Origin: Armatimonadota bacterium
Lineage (GTDB): Bacteria > Armatimonadota > UBA10988
DNA: 64,000 bases
NCBI GenBank assembly: GCA_016235455.1
Contig: JACRKZ010000069.1
Span: 1 to 64,000, forward strand
Direction: 5' to 3'
Part shown: one piece after another, positions 24,085 through 42,708 of the stretch
How the letters are laid out: every line of letters begins with the position of its first letter
Numbering within the stretch: position 1 is the stretch's first letter
Made by a program: the position numbers and the translations under genes
Notes under the pieces: model-generated
What the model saw: only the letters and a program-made list of their open reading frames with translations
Told to the model about the DNA's origin: nothing
Database searches by the model: none

Positions 24085-24140
24085 GAAGGGCAGCCAGGCC
24101 TCGCGCGGCGGCGAACCATGTTGCGCACTCGAACCGACGC

Positions 24141-24735: not shown

Positions 24736-24764
24736 GGGGACGGACGAGCCTGCATCGCGTTCCC
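24736..24764 (-). promoter_or_regulatory. Candidate ECF autoregulatory promoter GGGAAC-N16-CGTCCCC
   Basis: Matches the common ECF AAC(-35)/CGT(-10) pattern, about 35 nt before the first operon gene. Confidence 0.65.
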
Positions 24765-25067
24765 TCTGATTCTGCCACGTCGCGCGCGGGTCAACCAGCG
24801 CGGATTCGGCGCTAACCCTGCGAGCCCTCGCCGTGGTACTCTGAGGGGGTGCTATGACGGGTCTACCGTGGCCGATTGGTCGCGCGGACAAGCACCACCC
24901 CCTTGGCATGGAACACCGGGGTGCTTGCTCGCTGTCGAACGCTATGGCTGGCCCGAGGACGCGTTCTCTGTTGTCTGGCGCGGGGAGGAATCTGGACCGC
25001 TCCGCCGAACGCGTCCTGGCCGGGAATACCGCGGCCAGCAACCACCAGCGATGGTGGGGAGTTAGAT

Positions 25068-26444
25068 ATGACATTCGAACCAACGCGACGTGAATTCATC
25101 GGCAGCGCCGCCGTGGCGGGCCTGGCCTTCTGGGCTGGTGGCAGCGCTTCCGCGGCACCTGGCAAGAACGACAAGCTCAAGGTTGCGCACATCGGTGTCG
25201 GCGGCAAGGGCGGCAGCGACACGATCGACCTGGCCAACGGCAACATCACCCTGGCCATCTGCGACATCGACAAGGGTCGCCTGGCCAACATGGCCAAGGA
25301 ACTCGAGAACCGCGGACAGAAGGACTTCAAGCTCTACACCGACTACCGCAGGATGTTCGATGAGGTCAAGGGTCTCGACGCGGTGAACGTCAGCACTCCC
25401 GACCATCACCATGCGGTGGCCGGCATGCACGCCCTGACCCGCGACATCGCCGTCTTCGTGCAGAAGCCGTTCGCGCACACCATCTATGAGTGCCGCCTGA
25501 TGACCACTGTGGCCCGCCAGCGCAAGCTGGCCAGCCAGATGGGCAACCAGGGCACCTCCAATGGCGTGTTGCGCGAAGGCGTCGAGGTCATCCAGTCGGG
25601 CGCCATCGGCAAGGTCAAGGAACTGCACGTCTGGACCAACCGCCCGGTGTGGCCTCAGGGCATCGACCGGCCGGCCGGCGAGGACGCCGTTCCCGAGAAC
25701 GTCGACTGGGAGTGCTGGATCGGACCGGCGCCGATGCGGCCATTCAAGGCCAACCGCGCCTACCACGACTTCAACTGGCGTGGCTGGTATGACTTCGGGT
25801 GCGGCGCACTGGGCGACATGGCCTGCCACACGCTCAACCTGCCGTGCCTCGGTCTCGAGCTGGGCTACCCGACGCGGTTCTGGCTCGATAGCTCCTCGGA
25901 ACTCAAGAAAGAGACCTTCCCCAGCTGGGAGATCATCAAGTACGAGTTCCCCGAGCGCAAGAGCAAGCACTCGGGCGAGATGCTGCCGGCCCTGAACATG
26001 ACCTGGTACGACGGCAACAAGAAGCCCGCCAAGGAGCTCTTCCCCGACGGCAAGGTGCCCAACACCGGCTGCCTGCTCATCGGCGACCAGGGCTGCCTGG
26101 TCAGCGACGGCGACTACGGCACCAGCTACAAGCTGCTCGACGAGGCCAAGTTCAAGGACTACGAGCCGCCCAAGCCGTGGATTGCCCGCTCGCCGGGCCA
26201 TATGCGCGAGTTCACCGACATGGTCCGCGGCGGCGCCCCGGCCATGAGCAACTTCGAGTACTCGGGCTTCTTGTCGGAAGTCGTTCTGGCCGGCTGCCTG
26301 GCCACGCACACGACTAAGAAGATCGAGTGGGACGGCCCCAACATGGTGGCCAAGAACGCGCCCGAACTCGCCGGCCTGATCGACAAGACCTATCGCCCCG
26401 GTTGGGAACTGCCGGGCCGCAGTGAGATGAAGAAGGGCCAGTAG
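25068..26444 (+). CDS. Tat-exported Gfo/Idh/MocA oxidoreductase, copy 1
   Basis: TRREFIG Tat motif; IGVGGKG; VSTPDHHHA; VQKP; QMGNQG; GALGDMACH. Confidence 0.92.
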   Translation: MTFEPTRREFIGSAAVAGLAFWAGGSASAAPGKNDKLKVAHIGVGGKGGSDTIDLANGNITLAICDIDKGRLANMAKELENRGQKDFKLYTDYRRMFDEVKGLDAVNVSTPDHHHAVAGMHALTRDIAVFVQKPFAHTIYECRLMTTVARQRKLASQMGNQGTSNGVLREGVEVIQSGAIGKVKELHVWTNRPVWPQGIDRPAGEDAVPENVDWECWIGPAPMRPFKANRAYHDFNWRGWYDFGCGALGDMACHTLNLPCLGLELGYPTRFWLDSSSELKKETFPSWEIIKYEFPERKSKHSGEMLPALNMTWYDGNKKPAKELFPDGKVPNTGCLLIGDQGCLVSDGDYGTSYKLLDEAKFKDYEPPKPWIARSPGHMREFTDMVRGGAPAMSNFEYSGFLSEVVLAGCLATHTTKKIEWDGPNMVAKNAPELAGLIDKTYRPGWELPGRSEMKKGQ

Positions 26445-26457
26445 CTCTTCGCCACGA

Positions 26458-26496
26458 CACGACCGGAGTCACGCTGTCTGGGTGACTCCGGTCGTG
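26458..26496. terminator. Perfect 15-bp hairpin after copy 1 (terminator or mRNA stabiliser; no clear U-tract)
   Basis: cacgaccggagtcac-9 nt-gtgactccggtcgtg. Confidence 0.6.
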
Positions 26497-26535
26497 CCCG
26501 TTTCGGAACATCGCATCCTGGAGGAAATCATCGCA

Positions 26536-27975
26536 ATGGCGACGACACGACGTGAATTCCTTGGCACCAGCGCGGTTGCCGGTCTGGCCTTCTGGGCTGC
26601 CGGCAGCGCGTCGGCCAAGCCATCCGGCAACGACAAGCTCAAGGTCGCCCACATTGGTGTGGGTGGCAAGGGCGGCAGCGACACCATCGACCTGGCCAAC
26701 GGCAACATCACCCTGGCGCTCTGCGACATCGACAAGGGCCGTCTGGCCTCGATGGCCAAGGAGCTCGAGGCGCGGGGGCAGAAGGACTTCAAGCTCTACA
26801 CCGACTACCGCAAGATGCTCGACGAGGTCAAGGGCCTCGACGCGGTCAACGTCAGCACGCCCGACCACACTCACGCCCCCGCCGCCATGCAGGCCATGGT
26901 GCGCGACATTGCGGTGTTCGTGCAGAAGCCGTTTGCCCATACCATCTATGAGTGCCGGCTGATGACCACCACCGCGCGCGAGCGCAAGTTGGCCAGCCAG
27001 ATGGGCAACCAGGGCACGTCCAGCGGCATGCTGCGCGAGGCCGTCGAGGTCGTCCAGTCGGGCGCCATCGGCAAGGTCAAGGAACTGCACGTCTGGACCA
27101 ACCGCCCGGTCTGGCCCCAGGGCATCGACCGCCCGGCCGGCCAGGATCCCATTCCCGACAACCTCGATTGGGAGTCGTGGATCGGCGCGGCGCCCATGCG
27201 CCCCTACAAGGCCGGCGTGTACCACGACTTCAAGTGGCGCGGCTGGTACGATTTCGGCTGCGGCGCGCTCGGCGACATGGCCTGCCATACGCTGAACCTG
27301 CCGTTGTGGGCGCTGGAACTCGGCTATCCCACGCGCTTCTGGCGCGAGGACAGCTCCGAACTCAAGCCCGAGACCTTCCCCAACTGGGAAATCCTCAAGT
27401 ACGAGTTCCCCGAGCGCGTCAGCAAGCACACGGGCGAGATGCTGCCGCCGGTCACCATGACCTGGTACGACGGCGACGACGGCCACAAGCATGTGCCGGC
27501 CAAGGAACTCTTCCCCGACGGCAACGTGCCGCGCACCGGCTCGCTGCTCATCGGCGACAAGGGCGTGCTGGTCTCTGGTGGCGACTACGGCGGCGACTAC
27601 AAGCTGCTGCCCGAGCCGACCTTCAAGAGCTACGAGCCGCCCAAGCCGTGGATCCCGCGCTCGCCGGGCCACATGCGCGAGTTCACCGACATGGTCAAGG
27701 GTGGCGCGCCGGCCATGAGCAACTTCGAGTATGCCGGCTTCCTGTCGGAAGTGGTCCTGGCTGGCTGCCTGGCCCTGCACACCGACAAGAAGATCGACTG
27801 GGACGGCCCCAACATGGTGGCCAAGAACGCGCCCGAAGTCGCTCACTTCATCGACAAGCCCTATCGCCCCGGCTACGAGCTGGTCGGCCGCGAGTTGCTT
27901 GACGCCAAGCTCGCCGCGGGCCGTGCCGCCGCCGGCGCGGGCGCGCGCCACATTCCGACCTACACCATCAAGTAG
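26536..27975 (+). CDS. Tat-exported Gfo/Idh/MocA oxidoreductase, copy 2
   Basis: TRREFLG; same motifs as copy 1. Confidence 0.92.
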   Translation: MATTRREFLGTSAVAGLAFWAAGSASAKPSGNDKLKVAHIGVGGKGGSDTIDLANGNITLALCDIDKGRLASMAKELEARGQKDFKLYTDYRKMLDEVKGLDAVNVSTPDHTHAPAAMQAMVRDIAVFVQKPFAHTIYECRLMTTTARERKLASQMGNQGTSSGMLREAVEVVQSGAIGKVKELHVWTNRPVWPQGIDRPAGQDPIPDNLDWESWIGAAPMRPYKAGVYHDFKWRGWYDFGCGALGDMACHTLNLPLWALELGYPTRFWREDSSELKPETFPNWEILKYEFPERVSKHTGEMLPPVTMTWYDGDDGHKHVPAKELFPDGNVPRTGSLLIGDKGVLVSGGDYGGDYKLLPEPTFKSYEPPKPWIPRSPGHMREFTDMVKGGAPAMSNFEYAGFLSEVVLAGCLALHTDKKIDWDGPNMVAKNAPEVAHFIDKPYRPGYELVGRELLDAKLAAGRAAAGAGARHIPTYTIK

Positions 27976-28000
27976 GACCTCTCGGTTCGCTGGCGAAACA

Positions 28001-28034
28001 GAGGCCCAGGCTGACCACGGTCGGCCTGGGCCTC
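28001..28034. terminator. Hairpin after copy 2
   Basis: gaggcccaggctgac-cacg-gtcggcctgggcctc. Confidence 0.55.
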
Positions 28035-28069
28035 GCCTGTTGCGGGGCCCGCTGGAGGGTACCCGCGAC

Positions 28070-29503
28070 ATGGCAACGACACGGCGAGACTTCATCGGTA
28101 CCGGCGCGCTGGCCTCACTGGCCTTCTGGTCGGGTGGACGTGCCTCGGCTCAAGCGGCCGACGCCAAGGACAAGCTCAAGGTGGCCCACGTCGGTGTGGG
28201 CGGCAAGGGCGGCAGCGACACCATCGACCTGGCCAACGGCAACATCACCCTCGCGCTGTGCGACATCGACAAGGGCCGCCTGGCCTCAATGGCCAAGGAG
28301 CTCGAGGCGCGGGGTCAGAAGGACTTCAAGCTCTACACCGACTACCGCCGCATGTTCGACGAGGTCAAGGGCCTCGACGCCGTCACGGTCAGCACGCCCG
28401 ACCATCACCACGCGCCGGCGGGCATGAGGGCCCTGGTGCGCGACATCGCGGTGTTCGTGCAGAAGCCGTTCGCCCACAGCATCTACGAGACGCGGCTGAT
28501 GACCCTCACCGCGCGGCAGCGCAAGCTGGCCAGCCAGATGGGCAACCAGGGCACCTCGGCCGCGCGGCTGCGCGAAGCTGTCGAGGTCGTCCAGTCGGGC
28601 GCCATCGGCAAGGTGCATGAACTGCACGTCTGGACCAACCGGCCTATCTGGCCGCAAGGCATCGATCGGCCCGCCGGCGAAGACCCGATCCCCGACAGCA
28701 TCGACTGGGAGTGCTGGATCGGACCAGCGCCCATGCGGCCGTACAAGGCCGGCGTCTACCACGACTTCAAGTGGCGCGGCTGGTTCGATTTCGGTACCGG
28801 CGCGCTCGGCGACATGGCCTGCCACACGCTGAACATGCCGTTCTGGGCGCTCGAACTCGGCTACCCGACCCGCTTCTGGCGCGAGGACAGCGGCGAACGC
28901 CATCTCGAGACCTTCCCCAAGTGGTCCGTGCTCAAGTATGAGTTCCCCGAGCGCCGCAGCCGGCACACGGGCGAGACGCTGCCGCCGGTCAGCATGACCT
29001 GGTATGACGGCGACGACGCCAACATGCACCAGCCGCCCAAGGACCTGTTCCCCAACGGCCAGGTGCCGCGCACGGGCGCGCTGCTCATCGGCGACAAGGG
29101 CGTCATGGTCTCCCCCGGCGACAGCGGCAACGAGTACACGCTCTTCCCCGAGGCCCAGTTCAAGGACTACGAGCCGCCCAAGCCGTGGATCGCGCGCTCG
29201 CCCGGCCACATGCGCGAGTTCGTTGACGCGGTCAAGGGCGGCCCGCCTGCAGCCAGCAACTTCGAGTACTCCGGATTCCTCTCGGAGGTCGTGCTGGCCG
29301 GCTGTCTGTCCCTGCACTCGGACAAGAAGATCGAGTGGGACGGTCCGAACATGGTCGCCCGCAACGCGCCCGAGCTGGCTCACTACATCGACACGCCCTA
29401 CCGGCCCGGCTGGGAGCTGGTCGGTCGCGAGTTGCTCGATAACCAGCTCGCCGCGGCTGCGACGACCATCGAGCGCACCATGTCGAGCTACACCATCCGG
29501 TAG
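28070..29503 (+). CDS. Tat-exported Gfo/Idh/MocA oxidoreductase, copy 3
   Basis: TRRDFIG; same motifs as copy 1. Confidence 0.92.
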   Translation: MATTRRDFIGTGALASLAFWSGGRASAQAADAKDKLKVAHVGVGGKGGSDTIDLANGNITLALCDIDKGRLASMAKELEARGQKDFKLYTDYRRMFDEVKGLDAVTVSTPDHHHAPAGMRALVRDIAVFVQKPFAHSIYETRLMTLTARQRKLASQMGNQGTSAARLREAVEVVQSGAIGKVHELHVWTNRPIWPQGIDRPAGEDPIPDSIDWECWIGPAPMRPYKAGVYHDFKWRGWFDFGTGALGDMACHTLNMPFWALELGYPTRFWREDSGERHLETFPKWSVLKYEFPERRSRHTGETLPPVSMTWYDGDDANMHQPPKDLFPNGQVPRTGALLIGDKGVMVSPGDSGNEYTLFPEAQFKDYEPPKPWIARSPGHMREFVDAVKGGPPAASNFEYSGFLSEVVLAGCLSLHSDKKIEWDGPNMVARNAPELAHYIDTPYRPGWELVGRELLDNQLAAAATTIERTMSSYTIR

Positions 29504-29526
29504 GACGCGCTGGTTGACCGGCGAAT

Positions 29527-29565
29527 AGCAGGCCTGGGCTGACGTTGCGTTGGCCCAGGCCTGTT
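29527..29565 (+). terminator. Hairpin after copy 3 with weak U-rich tail
   Basis: agcaggcctgggctgacg-ttg-cgttggcccaggcctgtt, then gtgtt. Confidence 0.55.
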
Positions 29566-29583
29566 GTGTTGGGAGGGACGATC

Positions 29584-32500
29584 ATGCCCGAGCCAAGGTA
29601 TCTGATGACGTTGCTGCTCGTCGTGACGTGCCTGCGCGCCGAGGTGCTGGATCTGTCGGGTACCTGGCGCTTCCGCCTCGACCCCGACCGCATCGGCATG
29701 GTCGAGGGCCTGCCCGACAGCATTCGGCTACCGGGCTCCACCGATGAGGCAGGCTTCGGTACGAAGAACCCCAAGACCGAGACCTTCGCCCACCTGCACC
29801 GCAAGTGGGAGTACGTCGGACCGGCCTGGTATGAGCGCGACATCGACGTACCTGCCCGCTTTCGCGGCAAGCGCGTCACGCTGTTCCTCGAACGCTGCCA
29901 CTGGGAAACGCGTGCTTGGCTCGACGGACGGCCGCTGGGCATGCGCGACAGCCTGTGCACGCCGCATGTCTATGACCTGGGCACGACGCTGGCGCCCGGG
30001 CGGCACCGGCTGGCCATTCGCGTCGACAACACCATCAAGTACAACGTCGGTGGCTGGGCGCACTCGATCACCGACGAGACGCAGACCAACTGGAACGGCA
30101 TCATCGGGCGGTTGGAGTTGCGCACCAGTGACCCGGTCTGGATCGCCGACGCGCAGGCCTATCCCGATGTGCTCGCGCGCGCGCTGCGGTTCACCATCAC
30201 CGTGGGCAACGCCACCGGCAAGCCGGTCAGCGGCACGGTGGCGGACCGGGCCTTCACCTGCCCCGGTGAGTCGGTGACCGTGGAGACCAAGCAGCCGTTG
30301 CCCGTCGGCGTCAAGGTCTACGACGAGTTCAGCCGGGCGGCCGGCTCGGTCAAGGTGGACCTGGTGGCCGGCGCGTACCGCGACCAGCAGGTCGTGCCCT
30401 ATGGGCTGCGGTTTGTCGAGGTCAAGGACAAACGGCTGATGCTCAACGATCGGCCGCACTTCCTGCGCGGCACGCTGGAGTGCTGCATCTTCCCGCGGAC
30501 GGGCTACCCGGCGACCGACCTGGCCAGTTGGCGCCGCATCATGGCCGTTTGCCGCGACTATGGCCTCAACCACCTGCGCTTCCACAGTTGGTGCCCGCCC
30601 GAGGCGGCCTTTGCCGCGGCCGATGAGCAGGGCTTCCTGCTCCAGATCGAGCTACCCCAATGGGTGGGCAACTGCGGCAAGGAGCCACCGCGCGACGCCT
30701 TCATCAGCAATGAACTGCGCCGCATCCTGGACACTTACGGCAATCACCCGTCGTTCGGCATGTTGTGCATGGGCAACGAACTCGGCGGCGACGTCGACTT
30801 CCTCGACGGGCTGGTCAAGCTGGGCAAGGCGCTGGACCGGCGCCATCTCTACACCACGTCCACCGCCTGGTCACACGGGCCAAGTAACGACTACAACGTC
30901 AGCGTGGTGCGCGGCCTGCGCGGCGCCAAGACCGACCATGACTTCCGCGCCGAAGACGCCAAGGTCACTATACCCACCGTCAGCCACGAGATCGGCCAGT
31001 GGATGGTCTTCCCCAACTTGGCCGAGATCCCCAAGTACACCGGCGCGCTGGCGCCGCGCAACTTCGAGGCGGTACGCGACCAGATGACCAAGAACGGCCT
31101 GCTGGACCAGGCCGACACCTTCGTCCAGGCCTCGGGCCGGCTCTCCGCGCTGCTCTACAAGGAGGAGATGGAGGTCCTGCTGCGCACGCCCGGTCACGGC
31201 GGTTTCCAGTTGCTCGATCTGCATGACTTCCCCGGCCAGTGGACGTCGCTGGTCGGCATCCTCGACGCCTTCTGGGACTCCAAGGGGGTCATTACCCCGG
31301 CCGCATGGCGCCGCTTCTGCTCGCCCAGCGTGCCGCTGCTGCGACTGCCCAAGCGCGTCTATGGCAACCAGGACACGTTGACCGCCGCCGCCGAGTTGGC
31401 CCACTTCGGCCCCAGCGACCTCAAGGCGGCCAAGGCCACCTGGCGCGCGGTGGACGATGCTGGCCGCGTGGTGGGCCAGGGCGCCTTCGAGCCGCACGAT
31501 CTGCCCACCGGCCAGCTGTCGCCGCTGGGCACGATAATACTTGACCTCAAGCCAGTTAGTGAGCCGAGCAAGCTACGCCTGGAGGTGGCGGTGCCGGAGG
31601 CCGGAGCGGTCAACGATTGGAACGTCTGGGTCTACCCCGCCGTGGAAGCCGACAAGCCCAGCGACGCGCTCCTGGCCACCACCTGGGAAGAGGCCAAGAC
31701 CGGACTGGCGGCCGGCCGCAAGGTGCTGCTCATGGCCGGCGGCTGCCTGCGAGAGCCGGTCAGCACGCGCCTCGAAGTGCCGTTCTGGAATCCGCTGATG
31801 TTCAAGGGCCAGCCGCACACCTTCGGCCAGGTCATCGACCCGAAGCATCCAGCGCTGGCGCTGTTCCCCAGCGAGATGCACAACGACTGGCAGTGGTCCG
31901 ACGTGCTCGCCGGCGCGCGGTCCATGGTCATCGACAGCCTGCCGCGCGAATGTCGGCCCATCATCGCCTCGATCGACTGCCTCGACAGCAACCGACGGCT
32001 GGCTAACGTGCTTGAGGCTAAGGTCGGCGAAGGCCGCCTCCTGGTTGTCAGCTACGATCTGCGGCGCAATCTGGACCAGCGGCCGGCGGCGCGGGCGCTG
32101 CGCCGCAGCTTGCTGGCCTACATGGCGGGCCCGGCCTTCGCGCCGCGCGTGGCGCTGACGAACGCGCAGTTGGAAACCGTGTTTGGCCCCAACCTGCTGA
32201 CCGTCGTGCCCGGCGCGCCGACCGAGGGCGTGCAGCTGAGCGTGCGCGCCGCGGTCAACAACCCGCAGAAGGCGGCCAACCTGGACTGGGAACCCAAGCT
32301 GGACAAGGTCGAGCGACGCGAGGCCGGGTTCGACTACAAGGTCATCCAGGGCGCCACCTGGCTCGATGACACCGGTTCGTCGTGGCACCACACCGACGAA
32401 GTGAAGCTGCAGGTGACCTGCCCCAAGGGTTTTGCCGGTCGGCTGTACCTGTTCCTGTGGGACTGGAACAGCCTCAACCGGGCCGCGGCGATCCGCTACG

Positions 32501-32676
32501 AGGGGCGAACGCTGGGCACGCTCGACGAGTATGATGGCGCGGGCAAGTGGGTCATGATGCCGGTCACGGCCGCCGACTCCGCCGATGGCGTGCTCGACAT
32601 CGCGGCGCAGGCGCAGGCGGGCAACGTCATGGTGAGCGCTCTGTCGCTGTCAAGCGACACAGCGCCCGCCAAGTGA
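29584..32676 (+). CDS. GH2 family glycosidase with an extra C-terminal beta-sandwich domain
   Basis: LDLSGTWRFRLD; YVGPAWYER; FLRGTLECCIFP; GLNHLRFHSWCPP; NHPSF..GNE; SHEIGQW; FQLLDLHDFPGQ. Confidence 0.88.
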   Translation: MPEPRYLMTLLLVVTCLRAEVLDLSGTWRFRLDPDRIGMVEGLPDSIRLPGSTDEAGFGTKNPKTETFAHLHRKWEYVGPAWYERDIDVPARFRGKRVTLFLERCHWETRAWLDGRPLGMRDSLCTPHVYDLGTTLAPGRHRLAIRVDNTIKYNVGGWAHSITDETQTNWNGIIGRLELRTSDPVWIADAQAYPDVLARALRFTITVGNATGKPVSGTVADRAFTCPGESVTVETKQPLPVGVKVYDEFSRAAGSVKVDLVAGAYRDQQVVPYGLRFVEVKDKRLMLNDRPHFLRGTLECCIFPRTGYPATDLASWRRIMAVCRDYGLNHLRFHSWCPPEAAFAAADEQGFLLQIELPQWVGNCGKEPPRDAFISNELRRILDTYGNHPSFGMLCMGNELGGDVDFLDGLVKLGKALDRRHLYTTSTAWSHGPSNDYNVSVVRGLRGAKTDHDFRAEDAKVTIPTVSHEIGQWMVFPNLAEIPKYTGALAPRNFEAVRDQMTKNGLLDQADTFVQASGRLSALLYKEEMEVLLRTPGHGGFQLLDLHDFPGQWTSLVGILDAFWDSKGVITPAAWRRFCSPSVPLLRLPKRVYGNQDTLTAAAELAHFGPSDLKAAKATWRAVDDAGRVVGQGAFEPHDLPTGQLSPLGTIILDLKPVSEPSKLRLEVAVPEAGAVNDWNVWVYPAVEADKPSDALLATTWEEAKTGLAAGRKVLLMAGGCLREPVSTRLEVPFWNPLMFKGQPHTFGQVIDPKHPALALFPSEMHNDWQWSDVLAGARSMVIDSLPRECRPIIASIDCLDSNRRLANVLEAKVGEGRLLVVSYDLRRNLDQRPAARALRRSLLAYMAGPAFAPRVALTNAQLETVFGPNLLTVVPGAPTEGVQLSVRAAVNNPQKAANLDWEPKLDKVERREAGFDYKVIQGATWLDDTGSSWHHTDEVKLQVTCPKGFAGRLYLFLWDWNSLNRAAAIRYEGRTLGTLDEYDGAGKWVMMPVTAADSADGVLDIAAQAQAGNVMVSALSLSSDTAPAK

Positions 32677-32683
32677 GGTGAGG

Positions 32684-33832: not shown

Positions 33833-33839
33833 GGGCGTG

Positions 33840-36800
33840 TCAGCGCGTCACGCGCACCTCGGCCAACCACTTCCGCCGCAGGTACTCCTCGACGCCCAGT
33901 CGGTCGGCGTCGCTCAGCTTGGTATCGAAGGCGATGAACTCAGCCACCGATCCCTCCCACAGCGTGTGCGTGCGGCGAATGGCTCGGCTGGACGGCGTCG
34001 CCAGCTCGAACGTCACCTGGCGCCAGTCGAGCGGCGCCGGCGTGGCGTAGGGGTCCACGAGCTGGCCGTCGAGCCACGCGCGGCCGTCGCGGAAGGGCTT
34101 GTCCACCTGAGCCAACTCAGGCTTGCCGCGCAAGTCGCCCAGGTAGGCGTCCACACCCTCCCACGGCCCCGTGCCCAGCTTCGACAGGTCGTGATCGCGG
34201 TAGACCATGAACACGGTCTGGTAGCCGGCGATGCCGGCCTGCATGTCCTCCACCCAGATCCACTGCCAACTGGCGGTCTCGCGGCCGTTGAGCGAGTTGG
34301 GCTCGGCGATGACGAAGGCGCCGGGGGTGAACCCGCCGCTGGGCTTGGCGCGCCAGCCCAGCAGCGAGCTGCGCGGCCATTGCGGGCTGTCTTCCTTGCC
34401 GTCGCCATCGAAATCGGCCGCATCGAGCCAGCAAAGAAGCTTGCTGCCGGTCACCTTGTCTGGCGCCAATGGCGTCGTCGTCGGCAGCGGATCGGCCGCG
34501 ATGCTCACGCCAACGCGGTTGAAGCTGACAGCGCCGCTCTCCTCGCGTTGCGCCGCCACCCAGTACTGGCCGGGCCGGGGCGGAACGAACGACGCGCCGA
34601 CATGGATGGGGCGGCTGGCGTCTTCGTGACGCGCCGTGTAGCGCAAGTCGAAGTGTCCGCCATCGGGGCCGACGCCGTCCGCAATCAGCCGGCCGCGGTC
34701 GCAGGTGCCTTGCCACACCGCTTCACCCAGCAGGTCGTGCGAGCTGAGCCCGCGCTTGGTGCTGCCGCGCAGGGCCAGGCGAGCGCCCGGTGTGCCGTCG
34801 TGGTCGCAGTCGATCTTGAAGGTCACCGGCTTCTCGGTCCGGCCCTTGACGTAAGCGTCCAGCCGCACCCATGAGCCATGGTCGTTGTGCTCGCGGTTGC
34901 GCTCCTTGTCCACGTCCGATCCATTGGCCCAGAACCCGTCGACATTGGCGATGACGGCGCCCGTCGCTTCGACCACTTGGCCGTCAGCCGTGGTGAACAC
35001 GCCTTCGTAGACGCCGCGCGGCGCGCGTGCGATGTAGCCCGGGTAGTCGCGGTCGTACCACAAGTAGCGCCAGCCCGGCTGCGCATCGCCGATGCGCACG
35101 GCCTGGCCGGCCGCCTCGAAGCGCGGACGAGCCAGCGTGAAGGCCGGCTCGTCACGCACGGTGGCGCTCAGTTCCACCGCCGACTGGTTGGCATCCCTGA
35201 CTACCACGTGGTATGCGCCCGGCGGCAGGAACATGCGCTCCGCGCCGGCCGGGGCGTCGGTCCAGGTGTAGCTGTAGGGCGCCCGCCCGCCGGCGACCCG
35301 CAGGTGGATCTCGCCGTTGTTCTCGCCGGTCGATGCGGCCAGATGGTCGATCTCGGCGGCCAGAGGTTCCGTCGGCCTGGCCAGCTTCAGCTCGCCGCGC
35401 TTCTCGGCGCCCGAAGCATGGCGCACCACGTAGCTGTATTCGCCATCGCGCAGGCCGCGCACCGACGGGCCGCTCGCCCCGCTTGACCAACGACAGGCAA
35501 CCTGCTTGAGGTCGGCGCCGCCGATGCGCAGGTCCACCTGCCAGCGGCCGTCGGTGCAGGTGCTGCGCGCGTCCACGGTCATCGTGGTGGGCCGCTCCAA
35601 CGTCCATGCTGCGCTGGCCGAGCGGCACTCGCTATCGACAACGACGAGCGTACCCCGACCGGCGTCGAGTCCCGTGGCCGTGGCCTTGTCGCCACCGCAT
35701 GACCAGGTGTAGGTGTATGGCGGCACGCCGCCGCGAACCTGTGCCGTCAACCGGCCATCGTTCACACCCAGCACGCTCAGGTTCCGCGTCTGCACTGCGA
35801 CGGTCAGGGGCGCCGCGGCCGAAGTCGGCTTGGGGTTGGTGATGCGCCAGCGCCGTTCGGCGCGCGGGTACCGCGAGAACGGCGGGTCTTCGCGTACGTA
35901 CGGCGACCGGTCAATCAGCGAGTACACGAGCTCATACTCGGCCAGGGCGCCCAGATCCACGTCGATCTCGTCGCGGCCTTGGGCGATGACCTTGCCGTTG
36001 AGACGCCATTCGGTCTGCTGAGTGTCAGGCACCGGGTGGACGCGCGCCACACCAAAGCGCGCCTTGCCGGGCGTGGCCAGCACCAGGTCCGCACGCGAGG
36101 GCACCGCGCTATCGATGGGGTCCACATAGTCGTAGTGGCTGAGCACCGCCTGCTGCGTGCACAAAGCGCAGAGCGTGTCGCCGAACTGGTTGACGCCCAT
36201 GGAGCAGACCGGCGTCGTGCGGAAGATGCCCGACGGTCGGTGGACGCCGCCCTCGAACAGGCCGGTCTTGCGCAGATTCTCGCGGTTGTACGGCGTGGGC
36301 ACGGGTGTGGTCGGCGCGATCCAGGCCTTCCACGGCACGCGGTCGCGCTGCCAGAACAGCGTCGTGTTGCTGGACTCGTCGGCCCTGCCCCACATGCCCC
36401 AACCGATGTACTTGTCGCCCAGTTTCATGGCGGTGTGGCTGAACTCGTGGAAGAACGGCGGGATGTTGTTGCCCTCGATGAGGGCATCACCGACTCGCTG
36501 GTCGAGCAGCAGTCCCGCGCCGCCGCCACCGCCGCGCGAGTTGACCCAGGCCAGGTGCGTCACCCAGCCGCGACCGTCGCGCCGCCAGGGCAGGAAGAGC
36601 CGGTCTCGCACCAACTCGTTGTAGACCGCCCAATGGCAGGCCGACTGGCCCTTATCATAGGCAGGCGGATCCCAGGGCGGCGTGCTGGGCCACCACAGGG
36701 CGTAGACGTTGTAGAACGGCTTGTAGTTGGCGAACGGGCGCTGCGTCTTGTCGCCGTCGAGGGCGAAGGCCGGGTCGATGCAGTCGTGCACATCCTTGAG

Positions 36801-37304
36801 GAACGTCTCGCGCATCGCCGGCTTGTTGTACGGGTTCGTCTCGTCCTTGCGCCAGCGGTTGATGATCACGATGTTGATGCGGTTGTCTTTGTCGCCGCTG
36901 ATCTGGATGGGGATCAGCTCGGCTTCGCCGGCGACGATGCCGTCGAAGCGGTTGGCCGGCGGCGTGTGTGCGCTGACCGGCGCCGACGGCGCGCGCAGGG
37001 CAACGCGGCTCGTTTTGTCGCGCACATGGGCCACGAACGTGTAGTCCGTGCTCGGCTTGAGGCCCGCGCAGCGGTAGTCGGGCGATGCTTGCCAGCCGCT
37101 TTCCGCGGCTCCGCCGGCGGTACAGACGAAGTTGTACTCCGCCGCGTCGCCGAGTGCCTGGGCCGACATGACCACGGCAGTGCTCAGCGGGGCACGCGGC
37201 GGCGCGGCCCAGGCCAACGGGTCTGCACCGACGAACGTGGCATCGGCCGCGGCCAGTGTGCAGGACAGAAGGAGTACGGCACTACCCAGCGCAAGGTGCG
37301 TCAT
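33840..37304 (-). CDS. Secreted M64 (IgA peptidase-like) metallopeptidase with FN3-like, SprB-like and LamG-like domains
   Basis: Signal peptide; ISGDKDNRINIVII..PFANYKPFYNVYA; HEFSH..LGD; GLFEGG..CSM..LCALC; GGVPPYTYTWS and GGRAPYSYTWT repeats; WLDAAD..AEFIAFDTKLS..VEEYLRRKW. Confidence 0.72.
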   Translation of the reverse strand: MTHLALGSAVLLLSCTLAAADATFVGADPLAWAAPPRAPLSTAVVMSAQALGDAAEYNFVCTAGGAAESGWQASPDYRCAGLKPSTDYTFVAHVRDKTSRVALRAPSAPVSAHTPPANRFDGIVAGEAELIPIQISGDKDNRINIVIINRWRKDETNPYNKPAMRETFLKDVHDCIDPAFALDGDKTQRPFANYKPFYNVYALWWPSTPPWDPPAYDKGQSACHWAVYNELVRDRLFLPWRRDGRGWVTHLAWVNSRGGGGGAGLLLDQRVGDALIEGNNIPPFFHEFSHTAMKLGDKYIGWGMWGRADESSNTTLFWQRDRVPWKAWIAPTTPVPTPYNRENLRKTGLFEGGVHRPSGIFRTTPVCSMGVNQFGDTLCALCTQQAVLSHYDYVDPIDSAVPSRADLVLATPGKARFGVARVHPVPDTQQTEWRLNGKVIAQGRDEIDVDLGALAEYELVYSLIDRSPYVREDPPFSRYPRAERRWRITNPKPTSAAAPLTVAVQTRNLSVLGVNDGRLTAQVRGGVPPYTYTWSCGGDKATATGLDAGRGTLVVVDSECRSASAAWTLERPTTMTVDARSTCTDGRWQVDLRIGGADLKQVACRWSSGASGPSVRGLRDGEYSYVVRHASGAEKRGELKLARPTEPLAAEIDHLAASTGENNGEIHLRVAGGRAPYSYTWTDAPAGAERMFLPPGAYHVVVRDANQSAVELSATVRDEPAFTLARPRFEAAGQAVRIGDAQPGWRYLWYDRDYPGYIARAPRGVYEGVFTTADGQVVEATGAVIANVDGFWANGSDVDKERNREHNDHGSWVRLDAYVKGRTEKPVTFKIDCDHDGTPGARLALRGSTKRGLSSHDLLGEAVWQGTCDRGRLIADGVGPDGGHFDLRYTARHEDASRPIHVGASFVPPRPGQYWVAAQREESGAVSFNRVGVSIAADPLPTTTPLAPDKVTGSKLLCWLDAADFDGDGKEDSPQWPRSSLLGWRAKPSGGFTPGAFVIAEPNSLNGRETASWQWIWVEDMQAGIAGYQTVFMVYRDHDLSKLGTGPWEGVDAYLGDLRGKPELAQVDKPFRDGRAWLDGQLVDPYATPAPLDWRQVTFELATPSSRAIRRTHTLWEGSVAEFIAFDTKLSDADRLGVEEYLRRKWLAEVRVTR

Positions 37305-37329
37305 TCTGTCGCTCCCAGGGGCGACTTCG

Positions 37330-38643
37330 TCACCCGCGCAGGAACGCCTCCACCTCATCCAGCCCCAATGGCGCGGCGGCGGTGAAGTTCTCACAGCCCT
37401 GCTCGGTGACGACGACCGTGTCCTCGCAGCGGATGTAGAGCTTCTCCTCGGGCACCCACAGCTGCGGGTCGACCGCGAAGACCACGCCCGGCTCCAGGGG
37501 CCGCAGCGTGTAGTTGTCCACGTCGTGGACGATCATCCCCACCGAGTGCGACAGATGGCCGCGGAAGTCCAGCATGCGCCGCCCGGCGGCCTCGTATGCG
37601 GGCTTGGACCACGGCCAGCGGTCGATCACGGGCGCCATGGCCCCAGCGGCCTCGGCATGGACCTCGTCGGCGGTGAGACCGGGCCGGATGGCGGCCAGGA
37701 CAGCCAGATGGTACTCGACCACGAAGCCGTACAGCTCGCGCGCCTGGGCCGAGTAGGTGCCGTTGACGGGCCACATGCGGCCGATGTCGCTGGTGTAGTA
37801 GCCGTAGTCGGGAGCCGTGTCCATCAGGATCAGGTCGCCGTCGCGCAGCTCACAATCACACCGCCAGTAGTGGGCGAACCAGATGTTGCCCGCGCCCGCC
37901 GCGGTGATCGAGCGGTAGCCCTCGCCGCGCGCGCCGCCGTCGAGGTAGACCTGGTTGGCCAGCGCATTGAGTTGGTACTCATAGAGGCCCGGCCGGGTCG
38001 CGGCCATGGCGGCGATGATGGCTTGCGCCGACAATTCGCCCGCGCGGCGCATGACCGCGATCTCGGCGGCGCTCTTGATGCCCCTCATGCGGTCGGTAAT
38101 CGGGGATAGGTCGGCGATCGTGACGCCCGGCAGGCGGTCGCACAATAGGTCGATGAGCCGCTGCTCGCGAGTCGGCGCGGCGTCCCAGGGGTCGGCCGCG
38201 ATGAGGCGCTCGGCGTGGAGCATCTCGTCGCGCGACGACTGGAAGCCCTCGGCCGGCTGGTGCGGGGTGTAGACCGTCGTTGCGCCGGCGAGATCGTTCG
38301 CCAACTCCGCTAGCGGACGCACGCGGTCGACGCCGGTGTGGGCACGGATCAGTTCTTCATCCTGCGCGCCGAGCGTGTCGCCTTCCGCGCCTGGCGTCTC
38401 GCGGCGCGGCGGGAGGTAGATCGTCGAGCGCTGAGCGCGGCCGTCGAGCAGCAGGTAGGCCTGGGGCACTTCGAGCCCGGTCAGGTAGTACAGCTCGTTG
38501 GTTTGGCGGAAGGCCACGAATCCACGCGGCGGCGCGGCGCCCTGCACCAGCGCGACGGCGTCGTCGCCGACGGCGGCCAGCACGCGGCGGCGGCGGTCGG
38601 TCAGTTCGGCGGGGGTGAAGTGGGTCTGGAAGAGGCTGGGCAT
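37330..38643 (-). CDS. pepP: Xaa-Pro aminopeptidase (M24B)
   Basis: FRQTNELYYLTG; MRGIKSAAEI; LMDTAPDYGYYTSDIGR; HSVGMIVHD; IRCEDTVVVT. Confidence 0.85.
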   Translation of the reverse strand: MPSLFQTHFTPAELTDRRRRVLAAVGDDAVALVQGAAPPRGFVAFRQTNELYYLTGLEVPQAYLLLDGRAQRSTIYLPPRRETPGAEGDTLGAQDEELIRAHTGVDRVRPLAELANDLAGATTVYTPHQPAEGFQSSRDEMLHAERLIAADPWDAAPTREQRLIDLLCDRLPGVTIADLSPITDRMRGIKSAAEIAVMRRAGELSAQAIIAAMAATRPGLYEYQLNALANQVYLDGGARGEGYRSITAAGAGNIWFAHYWRCDCELRDGDLILMDTAPDYGYYTSDIGRMWPVNGTYSAQARELYGFVVEYHLAVLAAIRPGLTADEVHAEAAGAMAPVIDRWPWSKPAYEAAGRRMLDFRGHLSHSVGMIVHDVDNYTLRPLEPGVVFAVDPQLWVPEEKLYIRCEDTVVVTEQGCENFTAAAPLGLDEVEAFLRG

Positions 38644-38676
38644 GGATGGCCTACGCCTTCGGGCGGTGGGACGCGC

Positions 38677-38757
38677 GTTTGTAGTTCCGCCTTCAGGCGG
38701 TCGAGGCGGAGGCACGACGTGCTCGCACTTCGGCCGCCCGAAGGCGGAACTACAAAC
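38677..38757. repeat. GTAG-type REP doublet (REPIN)
   Basis: gtttGTAGttccgccttcaggcgg ... ccgcccgaaggcggaactacaaac (24-bp IR, 1 mismatch). Partial third copy cgccttcgggcgg at 38654-38666. Confidence 0.8.
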
Positions 38758-38781
38758 AGGGCTCGGTTCGCGGCCTTTGGC

Positions 38782-39465
38782 CTAGAACTTCACCCCAGGA
38801 TTGGTGAAGCGCAAGCCAGCGCCGTCGTGATAGGTGGCGTACTCGGTGACGATCGCGCCATCGGTGCCGCCCATCATGAAGTGCTTCTGGCCGACAGCGG
38901 CCAGGCGCTGCGCGCCGCCGACGTCGAGTCGGCTGACCTTGCGGGCCGTGGTGAACTTCTGCTGGCTCTCGGGGATGAGCTTGGCCGCTTCGGGCGACTC
39001 GGGGCCCTCGGCGAACAGGTAGACCCAACCGTAACGAGCCTGCCAGGACTCCATCTTCGGCGCCATGTCGGTCTTGACGTGCGCGTGCTCGACGATCATC
39101 TGGCCGGGCAGCAGGTAGATCTCATGGCCGAAGTACGAGAAGTCCTTCTCGTTGACCCAGAAGATGCCGCCCATGCCGGCGTGAACGAAGTCGCCCAGGC
39201 CGAAGTCGGTGGCCCAGATGTTGGCCTTGAGGTAGTCGCTGCTGGGCACATGGTACTTGGCCATCAGCTCGAGGTACGCGGCTTTGCCCTTCTCGGCGTC
39301 GAACTTGCCGTCGGCGCCGTAGAACATCTCGTTCTTATACGGGGACATCGGGATCTCCTGAGCCGGCGCCACGCCTGTGCGGCTGGCGCCACCAGCCATC
39401 GCCACGCCGGTCACGCCCAGGGCCGCCATCGCGGCCAGGACCTGTCGGCGATTGAGGTCTTCCAT
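38782..39465 (-). CDS. Tat-signal cupin sugar isomerase (D-lyxose/D-mannose isomerase-like)
   Basis: NRRQVL Tat-like motif; TDFGLGDF; LLPGQMIVEHAH..KMESW; GQKHF..GAIVTEYAT.H..RFTNP. Confidence 0.72.
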   Translation of the reverse strand: MEDLNRRQVLAAMAALGVTGVAMAGGASRTGVAPAQEIPMSPYKNEMFYGADGKFDAEKGKAAYLELMAKYHVPSSDYLKANIWATDFGLGDFVHAGMGGIFWVNEKDFSYFGHEIYLLPGQMIVEHAHVKTDMAPKMESWQARYGWVYLFAEGPESPEAAKLIPESQQKFTTARKVSRLDVGGAQRLAAVGQKHFMMGGTDGAIVTEYATYHDGAGLRFTNPGVKF

Positions 39466-39492
39466 GGATCGCTCCTCACGCCAGGCGCCCGA

Positions 39493-40380
39493 TCAGGCGT
39501 CCTGGTACATCTGATAGGCATCCGCCGGCGGCATCAGTTGATGCACCACCGCCGAGACGGCCTTGGCCATGGCCACCGGCTTGTCGGCCTGGAAGATGTT
39601 GCGGCCCATGTCGACGCCCGCGGCGCCCTGCTGGACGGCGTTGTAGCACATCTTCAGCGTGTCGAGCTCGGGCAGCTTCTTGCCGCCGGCGATGACGATA
39701 GGCACGGGGCAGGCTGCGGTGACCTGCTCGAAGTCGGACTCACAGTAGTACGTCTTGACATAGTGAGCGCCGAGTTCGGCGATGATGCGGCAGGCCAGGC
39801 CCAGGTAGCGCGCGTCACGTACCATCTCGCGTCCGACGGCGGTCACGCCGAGGGTCGGGATGCCGTAGCGGTTGCCCGCATCGATGGTCTTGGTCAGGTT
39901 CTCCAGCGTGTCGTGCTCATGCTCGCCGCCGACATAGACCTGCACCGCCATGGCCGCGGCGTCGAGGCGCACGGCGTCCTCGATGTCCACGCCGACATGC
40001 TCGTAGCTCAGATCCTTGAGGATCGTCGCGCCGGCCGAGCAGCGCAGGGCGATCGGCTTGGTGACGGTGGGCGGAATGCAGCTGCGCAGCACGCCGCGCG
40101 TGCACATGAGCACGTCGACATGCTCGCACAGGGGCACGATGTTCAGGTCGATGCGCTCGAGACCGGTGGTCGGTCCCATGATGTAGCCATGGTCGAAGGC
40201 CAACATCACAGTGCGCCCGCTCTTGGGGTTGAAGATGCGCGACAGGCGGTTCTTCATGCCCCAGTCGAGGTTGCCCGAGCCGCGCAGGAAGAAGCCTGGG
40301 GTCTCGAACGGGATATGGGGGCTGAACGCCTTGCTCTCGCCCGTGTCACCACCCGGGGTGGTCGTTTGTTCGTCTGGCAT
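39493..40380 (-). CDS. lsrF: 3-hydroxy-5-phosphonooxypentane-2,4-dione thiolase LsrF (class I aldolase fold)
   Basis: [29 protein letters not shown]; [12 protein letters not shown]; PIVIAGGKK; [10 protein letters not shown]. Confidence 0.92.
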
Positions 40381-40445
40381 ATGTCTCTCCATAGGGTGTG
40401 GGGGCGACCCGGGTGGGCCGCCCCTGGCACGTCGTGCAGACCGGC

Positions 40446-41081
40446 TCAGGCCGCGGCTTCCGCGAAGGCGCGGAAGAGCAGGCTCATCGACGTGGCGCCG
40501 GCATCGGGCGAGCCCTTGCTGCGCTCGCCCAGATTGCGGGCCCGGCCGAACTTGGCCTGCATGTCGGTGGTGGCCACGGCGCCGGCCTCGGCGGCCGCGG
40601 CCGCGTTGTCCAACGCCTCGGCCACGCCCAGACCGCCGTCCGCGGCGCTGCGCAGCGCCTGCACCGCGGGGACCAGCGCGTCCATCATGGTCTTGTCGCC
40701 GGGCTGGGCCTTGGTCTGGCGCTGCACGGCGGCCAGACCAGCCTCGAACGCCGCGGCGAAGGCAGCGGCATCCAGGGCGCTCTGACCGGCCGCGGATTCG
40801 GCCAGGCCGTTGAACAGCGTGCCCAGCAGCGGCCCGGTGGACCCGCCGTCGACGCCCAGCAGCGCCCAGCCGACATCGGTCAGCAGGGCCGGCAGGTCGC
40901 CTTCGGCTGAGGCGCCGATGGCCGTCTCGATGCAGCCCATGGCGCGCTTCATGGTCGTGCCATGATCGCCGTCACCGGCATAGGCATCGAGCTGGCCGAG
41001 CCACTCGTGCTTGTCGATCACCTTGGTCTCGGCGGCGCGCAGCAGCGCCACCATGGCCGCGTAGTCAATGCTCTGGATCAT
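40446..41081 (-). CDS. dhaL: Dihydroxyacetone kinase L subunit (DAK2)
   Basis: [11 protein letters not shown]; GGSTGPLLG; GDKTMMDAL; [19 protein letters not shown]. Confidence 0.9.
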
Positions 41082-41091
41082 CGAGCCTGCC

Positions 41092-42093
41092 TCACTTGCC
41101 GCTCACGGTCAGGTACGGCGTGTCGGCGGGGGCGTCCCACAGCGCGATCAGTTCGTCGTCCATCTTGGCGGCGAACATCTGGAAGCCGGCCATCTCCTGC
41201 ACCGTGAGGTACTCGTCGCAGCCGCCGCGCACCACTTCGATGCCCTTCTCGGCGCACACCTGAGCCACCTTGCGGAAGACGATGAACATCTCCATGAGCG
41301 TGGTGGCGCCGGTGCCGTTGAGCAGAACCAGCAACTTGTCCCCGGCCTTGGCCTCGATGTCGGCCAGCAGCATGTTGATCATGATCTCCGCGGTCTCGTC
41401 CGCGCTCTTGAGCTTCATGCGGCCCGTGCCGGCCTCGCCGTGCTGGCCCATGCCGATTTCCATCTCGTCTTCGGGCAGTTCGAAGATGAACTCACCGGTC
41501 GAGGGATGGCTGGCGGGCGTCAAGGCCACGGCCAGCGTGGCCATGTTGTCGTTGAACTTCTCGGCCACGGCCAGCACTTCATCCAGCGAACGGCCCTCTT
41601 CGGCGGCCGCGCCGGCGATCTTGTACAGCGGCACGCAGCCGACCAGGCCGCGCCGGTTCTCGGGCTCGGACTTGGGGCCGCCGGCCACGTCTTCGTGGGT
41701 CAGGATCTGCTTGACGTTCAGGCCCTGCTTGGCGGCCATCTCCATGACGATGTTGGCGGTCATGACGTCGCCCGAGTGGTTGAGCACCACAAAGAGCACG
41801 CCCGCGCCGAGGTCGGCCCGCTTGATGGCGTCGAGCACGCGGGGCGGACCAGGCGCCGCGAAGATCTCGCCGGGCACGCTGATGTCGATCATGCCTTCGC
41901 CCACGAAGCCCGACAGCGCCGGCTCATGCCCGCTGCCGCCGTGGGTGACGATGGCCACTTTGCCCGCCGCCTTGGGCGTCGCGCGCACGACCAGATTGTT
42001 GCCTTCCAGCTTGATCTTCTTGGCGTACGCCGCGGCATAGCCCTCCAGAAGCTCGCTGACGAGATTGTCCGGATCGTTGATGAACTTCTTCAT
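41092..42093 (-). CDS. dhaK: Dihydroxyacetone kinase K subunit (DAK1)
   Basis: MKKFIND; GGSGHEP; GEIFAAP; NHSGDV; RRGLVG; EIGMGQHGEAG. Confidence 0.92.
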   Translation of the reverse strand: MKKFINDPDNLVSELLEGYAAAYAKKIKLEGNNLVVRATPKAAGKVAIVTHGGSGHEPALSGFVGEGMIDISVPGEIFAAPGPPRVLDAIKRADLGAGVLFVVLNHSGDVMTANIVMEMAAKQGLNVKQILTHEDVAGGPKSEPENRRGLVGCVPLYKIAGAAAEEGRSLDEVLAVAEKFNDNMATLAVALTPASHPSTGEFIFELPEDEMEIGMGQHGEAGTGRMKLKSADETAEIMINMLLADIEAKAGDKLLVLLNGTGATTLMEMFIVFRKVAQVCAEKGIEVVRGGCDEYLTVQEMAGFQMFAAKMDDELIALWDAPADTPYLTVSGK

Positions 42094-42173
42094 GCCACTC
42101 TCACTCCCATCGCCTCGGTCCCACGCTCGGCGGTGGCCCCCAGGGCCAACGGTCCGCGTCGCGTGCCCTTGGC

Positions 42174-42488
42174 TCAGCCCAGTTGGATGTACTCGAGGTT
42201 GACGCCGTCCTTGACCAGGAACGCGACGGTCACGCCGGGCATGACCTCCATCGGCGCGTTGAGGATCTTCTCCTCGCCGGCCAGGGCCGCCTGGATGTCC
42301 TCGACCTGATAGGCCACGTGCGGCCCACGCCGCAGCGACTCGTGGAGGACACTGTCGTGCTCGAAACGAACGTACTCGAAGCACAGCGGATGCGCCGAGG
42401 GGTCGGTCACGTGGACACCGGCGGCTTCGATGTACGTGGTTTCCGGCAGGCGCTCTTGGGTCGGCACGCCGACGTGAAGGAACTGCAT
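42174..42488 (-). CDS. Small VOC/glyoxalase-like protein
   Basis: FLHVGVP..EYVRF..PHVAYQVEDI..VAFL..LEYIQ (His/Glu paired metal-ligand pattern); RBS AGGAG. Confidence 0.65.
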   Translation of the reverse strand: MQFLHVGVPTQERLPETTYIEAAGVHVTDPSAHPLCFEYVRFEHDSVLHESLRRGPHVAYQVEDIQAALAGEEKILNAPMEVMPGVTVAFLVKDGVNLEYIQLG

Positions 42489-42557
42489 CGTGAACACTCC
42501 TGACCAGGTGATTGCCCATCGTGCGCGAGAGGGCGGACACGGGCCATTCACCGCGCG

Positions 42558-42586
42558 AGTCTGCCCGATCAATATCCCTGCGTCAA
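42558..42586 (-). promoter_or_regulatory. Candidate sigma70 promoter of the VOC-dhaKL-lsrF operon
   Basis: TTGACG-N17-CAGACT on the minus strand. Confidence 0.5.
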
Positions 42587-42650
42587 GGGCTTCCACCGCT
42601 GATCGCGCTATGCTACCATACTCTCGGCGCGGGGATGTGGTATCGATATC

Positions 42651-42680
42651 GGGAACCTCGCCCCGAGATGGTTCGTCCCC
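42651..42680 (+). promoter_or_regulatory. Candidate ECF promoter GGGAAC-N17-CGTCCCC
   Basis: Same two boxes as at 24736-24764, about 30 nt before ATG 42709. Confidence 0.55.
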
Positions 42681-42708
42681 AAGCACGTTTCGCAGGAATC
42701 AAGAAACC

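Follow-up and report, generated by a model that had tools for sequence, protein, structure and literature searches.

The 64,000-nucleotide stretch of DNA analysed here (the window: positions 1 to 64,000 of contig JACRKZ010000069.1, assembly GCA_016235455.1, from an Armatimonadota bacterium) contains an operon encoding an extracytoplasmic function (ECF) sigma factor and, 18 kb away on the opposite strand, an operon encoding a secreted propeller/di-haem protein and a Rid-domain protein, both preceded by the same pair of promoter-like boxes, GGGAAC and CGTC, set 16 or 17 nt apart. With a probability that we put at roughly 0.6, the sigma factor whose gene lies at 23563-24084 recognises GGGAAC-N16/17-CGTC as a promoter class comprising the promoter of the sigma operon itself and about 20 others, that of the di-haem operon among them.

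The box pair belongs to a genome-wide family of promoter elements

The minus-strand pair (24764..24736) consists of GGGAAC (24764..24759), a 16-nt spacer and CGTC (24742..24739) followed by CCC (24738..24736), and is located 34 nt before ATG 24701, the start of the first gene of the ECF operon. The plus-strand pair (42651..42680) consists of GGGAAC (42651-42656), a 17-nt spacer and CGTC (42674-42677), again followed by CCC (42678-42680), and is located 28 nt before ATG 42709, the start of the propeller/di-haem gene. In both cases the gene that follows at this distance of 28-34 nt encodes a protein with a signal peptide. Both pairs had been reported in a preliminary description of the window, and we found them exactly where it placed them and with the same sequence; its distance of 30-35 nt to the start codon is roughly right.

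Judged by the window alone, the motif is not above chance: GGGAAC-N15-18-CGTC has two matches against 0.86 expected, and two or more were found in 26 of 100 dinucleotide shuffles. The caution in the preliminary description that high GC raises the rate of chance matches (GC content is about 69%) was justified. We also scanned the whole 6.5 Mb assembly, for which our own crude codon-bias caller yielded 4871 genes and a non-coding fraction of 7.7%. Genome-wide, GGGAAC-N16,17-CGTC has 41 matches, 24 of them intergenic and 22 facing a same-strand start codon within 200 nt. As a control we used 200 box pairs, sampled from the 719 that can be made by permuting the letters within each box: these gave on average 52 matches, of which 3.5 were intergenic and 1.3 upstream-oriented, and none of the 200 reached the real values. 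The highest control, with 8 upstream-oriented matches, was GGAACG/GTCC, which is a phase-shifted version of the real motif. The comparison of upstream sites with background that the preliminary description had proposed as a check is therefore strongly positive.

The enrichment is limited to spacers of 16 to 18 nt: the intergenic share of GGGAAC-CGTC matches is 10/19 for N16, 14/22 for N17 and 5/8 for N18, and spacers of 12-15 and 19-21 nt have just 0-2 intergenic matches each. With GGAAC in place of GGGAAC, the number of intergenic sites rises to 42 (28 N17 and 14 N16). The bases flanking N16 and N17 sites show no visible difference. The full 13-base form (GGGAAC...CGTCCCC) occurs three times in the genome, each time upstream of a gene: the two sites in the window and one on another contig (C62:36219-36248; C numbers are our handles for contigs of the assembly). 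We rejected the CCC extension as a mark of specificity, as column counts of the family members predict about 1.4 such sites among 24, compared with the three seen. Not every one of the 24 intergenic sites counts as independent, since C118:51483-51509 and C161:35404-35430 have identical flanks, each precedes DUF1559/N-methyl genes, and the two thus represent a duplicated promoter-plus-gene unit. Taken at the level of sequence, the genome-wide counts support the assignment of the two window pairs to a genuine family of alternative-sigma (ECF-type) promoter elements.

A related form, GGGAAC-N16,17-CGCT, has 32 matches, among which we counted 14 in intergenic sequence and 11 with an upstream orientation. 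Its N17 version is common before genes, with about 12 intergenic sites (for example C16:12150, C59:24928, C62:25982 and C185:8843). CGCT may be a variant -10 element for the window's sigma factor or may belong to a different sigma factor.

Very probable autoregulation of the ECF operon

The genome has 24-27 matches to the sigma-70 family, mostly ECF-sized, and about 24 loci are of the ECF type. At 29 loci the scan covered the 250 nt ahead of each sigma gene and the 250 nt ahead of the same-strand genes that precede it; the upstream region of one partial sigma gene is cut off by a contig end. Among these 29 sigma-70-family loci the window's operon is the only ECF carrier of [GT]GAAC-N15-18-CGT[CA], the one other match belonging to a primary-looking sigma factor of 385 aa. 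The looser pattern AAC-N15-18-CGT matches at 3 of 24 ECF-type loci, with GGAAC/CGTC at the window's locus only.

The strongest single result of the analysis is the footprint of this promoter across families. We collected the 20 best loci for the window's sigma factor, orthologous or best-hit and with its own locus included, across 40 relatives. GGAAC-N16-CGTC is present upstream of the operon at 11 of the 20 (nine with GGGAAC, two with CGGAAC), and these loci are drawn from several families within the phylum. Each of the 11 autoregulatory copies has a spacer of exactly 16 nt and a pyrimidine after CGTC. The distance from the promoter to the sigma match is 567-939 nt in the five family-level genomes, where the promoter stands ahead of a homologue of the 186-aa protein encoded first in the window's operon, and 71-123 nt in six more distant genomes. 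A wider homologue search with the sigma factor yielded only sequences roughly 30-40% identical, spread over many phyla and of no use for footprinting.

AAC/CGT boxes and positive autoregulation are hallmark features of ECF sigma factors (PMC8103513). The conservation of the operon promoter across several families makes autoregulation of the ECF operon through its own box pair very likely. The preliminary description had noted that ECF sigma factors commonly autoregulate through such boxes, and both the conserved promoter and the position of the window's operon as the sole motif carrier among the ECF-type loci support this well.

The di-haem operon as a candidate target

The site before the di-haem gene conforms to the consensus of the sigma factor, with GGGAAC, with CGTC plus pyrimidine as in the 11 autoregulatory copies, and with a distance of 28 nt to the ATG. 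It belongs to a motif class that, in this genome, is closely bound to gene starts and to a single sigma locus. A consensus scan of 42050-42800 found no sigma-70-type promoter. We consider the di-haem operon a plausible target of the window's sigma factor and, with motif identity as the link, the connection is on balance probable.

Several observations weigh against the proposal that a single sigma factor reads the whole class, di-haem site included. The spacer of the di-haem site is N17, as opposed to the N16 of all 11 autoregulatory copies; N17 sites are nonetheless enriched before genes. Comparison of orthologous promoters, another check put forward in the preliminary description, held for the ECF operon and failed for the di-haem operon: the motif is upstream of none of nine di-haem orthologues and paralogues with upstream sequence, a same-genus genome included. 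These nine comprise orthologues in seven genomes (G001, G002, G003, G004, G007, G008 and G019 in our numbering) plus an additional G004 copy and the C183 paralogue. Eighty di-haem loci from other phyla gave no relevant match to the motif and one unrelated match. The genome has, moreover, some two dozen ECF-type loci and the truncated sigma gene whose upstream region is missing, and CGGAAC-N17-CGTC occurs at C126:190-216 (minus strand), near a contig end and immediately 3' of an ECF gene (C126:219-839, minus strand). The gene calls that define intergenic sites come from a crude custom caller. Finally, the targets lack a clear common function, and a crude signal-peptide test scored 9 of the 22 first genes of target operons compared with 1185 of 4626 genes genome-wide (p 0.085, not significant). 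Because of this p value, and because miscalled starts blur the test, we claim no signal-peptide enrichment. By eye, more targets carry signal peptides than these nine, a count with no fair background for comparison.

Expression data, namely Logan contigs from four metatranscriptome runs that represent a relative about 90-95% identical in sequence, add to the points against. The runs were chosen with the di-haem stretch. An RNA-library contig of the relative covers 42627-44000, that is, across the boxes, and in three of the four runs the contigs contain a G inserted after 42650 and hence bridge the boxes. Since a transcript starting just after CGTC would not bridge them, such contigs weigh weakly against a sole start at that point. 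They fit an additional upstream start, the divergent transcript or DNA carry-over, and they show neither strand nor ends. One X1 contig ends at 42592 and continues into adapter letters, to which we attach no weight, as contigs cannot define RNA ends. In the same four runs the di-haem gene is covered, and almost no contig sequence falls on the bin 24001-24667 over the first gene of the ECF operon, an absence of cover that proves nothing.

The alternative that survives best accepts the promoter class as real and assigns the N17 sites, including the di-haem site, to a different ECF sigma factor of overlapping specificity, which is either non-autoregulated or has its own promoter in unassembled sequence; the window's sigma factor would then act mainly at N16 sites. 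The uniform N16 spacing of the conserved autoregulatory promoters speaks for this, and N17 is the larger class in this genome, both with GGGAAC (14 intergenic sites versus 10) and with GGAAC (28 versus 14). Candidates are at hand among the many ECF-type loci: the sigma factor on C126 could be a second reader of the N17 sites, and the partial gene without assembled upstream sequence belongs to a genome that is 93% complete. Furthermore, a GGAAC-type -35 element is predicted for several ECF groups in entries of the supplement of PMC7826278. However, no other ECF locus has the motif upstream, the flanks of N16 and N17 sites look alike, and the intergenic sites of relatives use both spacers (five N16 and four N17 among nine found in a sample of 30). 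We regard a second reader of this kind as rather unlikely.

The weaker alternative treats the di-haem boxes as chance or vestigial and places the operon's true promoter elsewhere in the 220-nt divergent intergenic region, upstream of the boxes. It can draw on the two window matches being within chance expectation, on the 17 or so of the 41 genome matches that are located inside genes (non-functional copies do exist), on the relative's RNA-library contigs, which in three of four runs reach upstream past the boxes to at least 42627, and on the lack of conservation at di-haem orthologues. However, a random match would seldom land in the 7.7% of non-coding sequence with the correct orientation and 28 nt ahead of a start codon, and all three 13-base copies precede genes; the relative's contigs keep GGGAAC itself, with only an extra G before the -35 box; the consensus scan offers no sigma-70-type promoter to take over; and a housekeeping promoter further upstream would be compatible with an ECF promoter. 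We consider a chance origin of the di-haem boxes very doubtful.

Genes of the ECF operon

The ECF-type promoter at 24736..24764 precedes four genes on the minus strand. The first (24141..24701) encodes the 186-aa secreted protein, which has orthologues in four family-level relatives. The sigma gene (23563..24084) encodes 173 aa if GTG 24084 is the start, a choice that we made by reading the sequence. Its product contains Sigma70_r2 (PF04542) and Sigma70_r4_2 (PF08281) domains and scores 92.6 bits with TIGR02937 (sigma70-ECF; cut-off 42.9). For the RpoE equivalog TIGR02939 the score is 91 bits, below the cut-off of 236. Assignment to an ECF group through NCBIfam was abandoned, as many equivalog models match, all of them far under their cut-offs.

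The third gene (23112..23561) encodes a predicted single-pass anti-sigma factor of the ZAS type, with an N-terminal zf-HC2 domain (PF13490, 26 bits compared with a cut-off of 22.2) that contains H-x3-C-x2-C, and with one hydrophobic span. Its ATG (23561) abuts the stop codon of the sigma gene (23563-23565) with zero gap, so that the cognate anti-sigma factor is encoded adjacent to its sigma. In the Pfam search zf-HC2 was the sole match, and no match of the RseA type was obtained. The fourth gene (22144..23115) encodes a MucB/RseB-like protein with a lipoprotein-type signal (LAGC) and a PF03888 match (45.6 bits, cut-off 22.3); the NCBIfam RseB equivalog gives just 19.8 bits, compared with a cut-off of 368.

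The 186-aa protein and its orthologues in the four relatives share a signal peptide, a GPxWQS motif (GPVWQS in the window), a helical hairpin and a tail rich in Gly, Met and Arg (in part also Cys). A Pfam search gave no match even at E<=5. A PDB profile search lists 3lay_A at E 3.1, and the ESM Atlas gives 0.84-0.85 against clusters carrying PF13801, both weak leads. The AlphaFold model reaches a pLDDT of 84-92 over the hairpin and 57 overall, and the top six Foldseek rows for this model are all chains of 3lay (probability 0.96-0.99, TM about 0.67 on the target, E 0.45-1.1). With three weak leads agreeing on the ZraP/Metal_resist family, the protein is probably ZraP/CpxP/Spy-like.

Genes of the di-haem operon

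On the plus strand, the ECF-type promoter-like boxes at 42651..42680, one of the 14 intergenic members of the N17 class, are followed by the propeller/di-haem gene (42709..44571). We take ATG 42709 as its start, since homologues align from residue 2-5 onward. The predicted product of 620 aa has a signal peptide and a YVTN/PQQ-type beta-propeller fused to a C-terminal di-haem domain of the CCP/MauG-like kind (Pfam CCP_MauG, PQQ_2 and Cytochrome_CBB3) with two CXXCH motifs, CSSCH at residues 424 and 534. NCBIfam shows a sub-threshold likeness to hydrazine synthase beta/gamma and to MauG/MbnH-type di-haem enzymes.

After a gap of 80 nt follows the gene for a 356-aa protein (44651..45721) with a C-terminal Rid/L-PSP domain (PF01042) and a weak FkbO/Hyg5-like similarity (TIGR04444, 32.8 bits, far below the cut-off of 325). 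A Rid/FkbO-like homologue is encoded directly downstream of the di-haem orthologue at 34 of 80 loci from many phyla (L141-L220), as well as at L022, L024 and L025 from relatives. Of those 34 pairs, 20 were matched at E<1e-40 and 14, of the Bacteroidales type, at 23-27% identity. As judged from gene order, the pairing of the propeller/di-haem gene with the Rid/FkbO-like gene is conserved and widely distributed. The gene descriptions given earlier for the two operons (ECF operon, di-haem propeller, Rid) proved correct.

Divergent to the di-haem gene, and sharing the intergenic region that holds the boxes, is a 104-aa open reading frame (42174..42488, minus strand) that was identified by gene calling and has no Pfam match. 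Its homologues are located just after the di-haem gene at three loci of the Bacteroidales type (L160, L200 and L215), and a second copy is found at C183:17640-17945, on the contig that holds the di-haem paralogue.

Comparison with known systems

A close parallel in overall layout is the E. coli RpoE-RseA-RseB-RseC system (ECF02): an autoregulated ECF sigma factor co-transcribed with a membrane anti-sigma factor and, at +2, an RseB/MucB-like periplasmic protein, with a GGAAC-type -35 element and a broad regulon biased to extracytoplasmic proteins. The two systems differ in that the anti-sigma factor encoded in the window is of the ZAS type (zf-HC2) and not RseA, RseC is absent, the -10 element is CGTC and not TCAAA-like, and a ZraP-like gene heads the operon.

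In the combination of a ZAS or single-pass anti-sigma factor at +1 with what is probably a CpxP/ZraP-type periplasmic protein, the operon resembles the groups ECF281, ECF290, ECF111 and ECF03 as summarised in PMC7826278. According to these summaries, the groups, which are associated with heavy-metal-resistance or LTXXQ proteins, have been suggested to serve in the response to envelope or heavy-metal stress (Casas-Pastor et al. 2021, PMC7826278). Their periplasmic protein is placed at +2 (or at +1 in one summary line), unlike the one in the window, which is at -1 and has no Pfam match. The entries consulted for these groups describe no RseB-like protein, which is reported at +2 for ECF02 (PMC7826278), and the motif listed for ECF111, TTGAACCT / GTCTAAA, differs from the one found here. 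Compared with the groups by description only, the operon appears to combine the pairing of a ZAS anti-sigma factor and a ZraP-like protein with RseB at +2. By promoter, entries in the supplement of PMC7826278 point to at least two further groups: ECF25 (SigG-type), with a predicted GGAAC -35, a GTC -10 and a single-pass anti-sigma factor, and ECF268, with a predicted GGGAAC -35 and a ZAS anti-sigma factor, unlike the window in its -10 (GGTGT).

The 186-aa protein is likened to ZraP (PDB 3lay), which assists the ZraSR envelope stress system in the periplasm. Both are secreted, and both have a roughly 60-residue helical hairpin that leads into a Gly/Met-rich tail, although the similarity is weak both by fold (E 0.45-1.1) and by sequence profile (E 3.1). 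ZraP partners a two-component system, not an ECF sigma factor.

Breadth of the predicted regulon

The motif precedes about 22 operons, and at the other 20 fetched sites none of the genes downstream encodes another sigma factor. Predicted targets include glycoside hydrolases (GH; families GH5, GH88 and GH99 and a GH141-like type), sulfatases, GFO/IDH/MocA oxidoreductases accompanied by ApbE, 3-keto-disaccharide hydrolases, DUF1559/N-methyl proteins, PA14 and PQQ-type propellers, a heparinase-like lyase, an aldo/keto reductase with an Na/H exchanger, DUF6935 with an S9 peptidase and an ABC transporter, a B12/radical-SAM protein and a tandem peroxiredoxin. The content rich in DUF1559 proteins, sulfatases and GH enzymes fits what would be expected of a glycan degrader. 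As most of these operons encode secreted enzymes of glycan breakdown, the ‘metal/peroxide regulon’ of the preliminary description is too narrow a name for the set as a whole, and the theme is recovered at the three 13-base sites, which serve the ZraP-like protein, the di-haem peroxidase-like protein and, at C62:36219-36248, the secreted tandem peroxiredoxin. The last of these has no full-length orthologue among the 40 relatives searched. Two of its single-domain homologues, G035:C306:28366-28887 (L222) and G026:C41:2683-3183 (L224), contain one in-frame TGA each, which may encode selenocysteine or interrupt the gene.

The exact pattern is less common in four sister genomes than here, with 12, 30, 18 and 21 matches (81 in total). 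Among 30 of these 81 loci that we sampled, nine are intergenic and seven upstream-oriented, compared with 24 intergenic of 41 in the present genome. No function is obviously common to the motif-linked genes of the relatives, which encode DUF1559 proteins, a transketolase-like protein with a beta-eliminating lyase, PhyH, STN-domain and AAA/DUF4143 proteins, and proteins without a known family. The motif set may have grown in this lineage. A bolder and, in our view, unlikely extension is that an envelope-stress ECF module (ZraP-like protein, sigma factor, ZAS anti-sigma factor and RseB-like lipoprotein) was promoted in this lineage to a master switch of the secreted-enzyme repertoire. Its motif precedes 22-36 operons here, whereas in the four sister genomes matches are fewer and only some 25-40% of them stand before operons, and its three best sites would tie periplasmic peroxide chemistry (the di-haem propeller enzyme and the tandem peroxiredoxin) to a switch shared with polysaccharide degradation.

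The window itself holds three tandem GFO/IDH/MocA paralogues (25068-29503). A contig from an RNA library of the relative joins 26305 to 27777, skipping 1471 nt, which would correspond either to one GFO/IDH/MocA copy fewer or to collapsed repeats.

A model for the regulation and its meaning

In the mechanism that we propose, the four-gene operon would yield a ZraP-like periplasmic protein, the sigma factor, a ZAS-type membrane anti-sigma factor and an RseB-like lipoprotein. The anti-sigma factor would keep the sigma factor inactive until an envelope signal, possibly metal or oxidative in nature, frees it. The freed sigma factor would direct RNA polymerase to its own promoter, resulting in positive autoregulation, and to about 20 others, one of which would be the promoter 28 nt before the gene for the propeller/di-haem enzyme and its Rid/FkbO-like partner.

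Results of this kind, ECF autoregulation and a regulon predicted from a motif, are standard, and they answer no open question. For an uncultured phylum with almost no genetics, they provide one concrete, predicted sigma-promoter pair and a set of about 22 candidate target operons that includes the propeller/di-haem enzyme with its Rid/FkbO-like partner, a module of two genes that is widely conserved.

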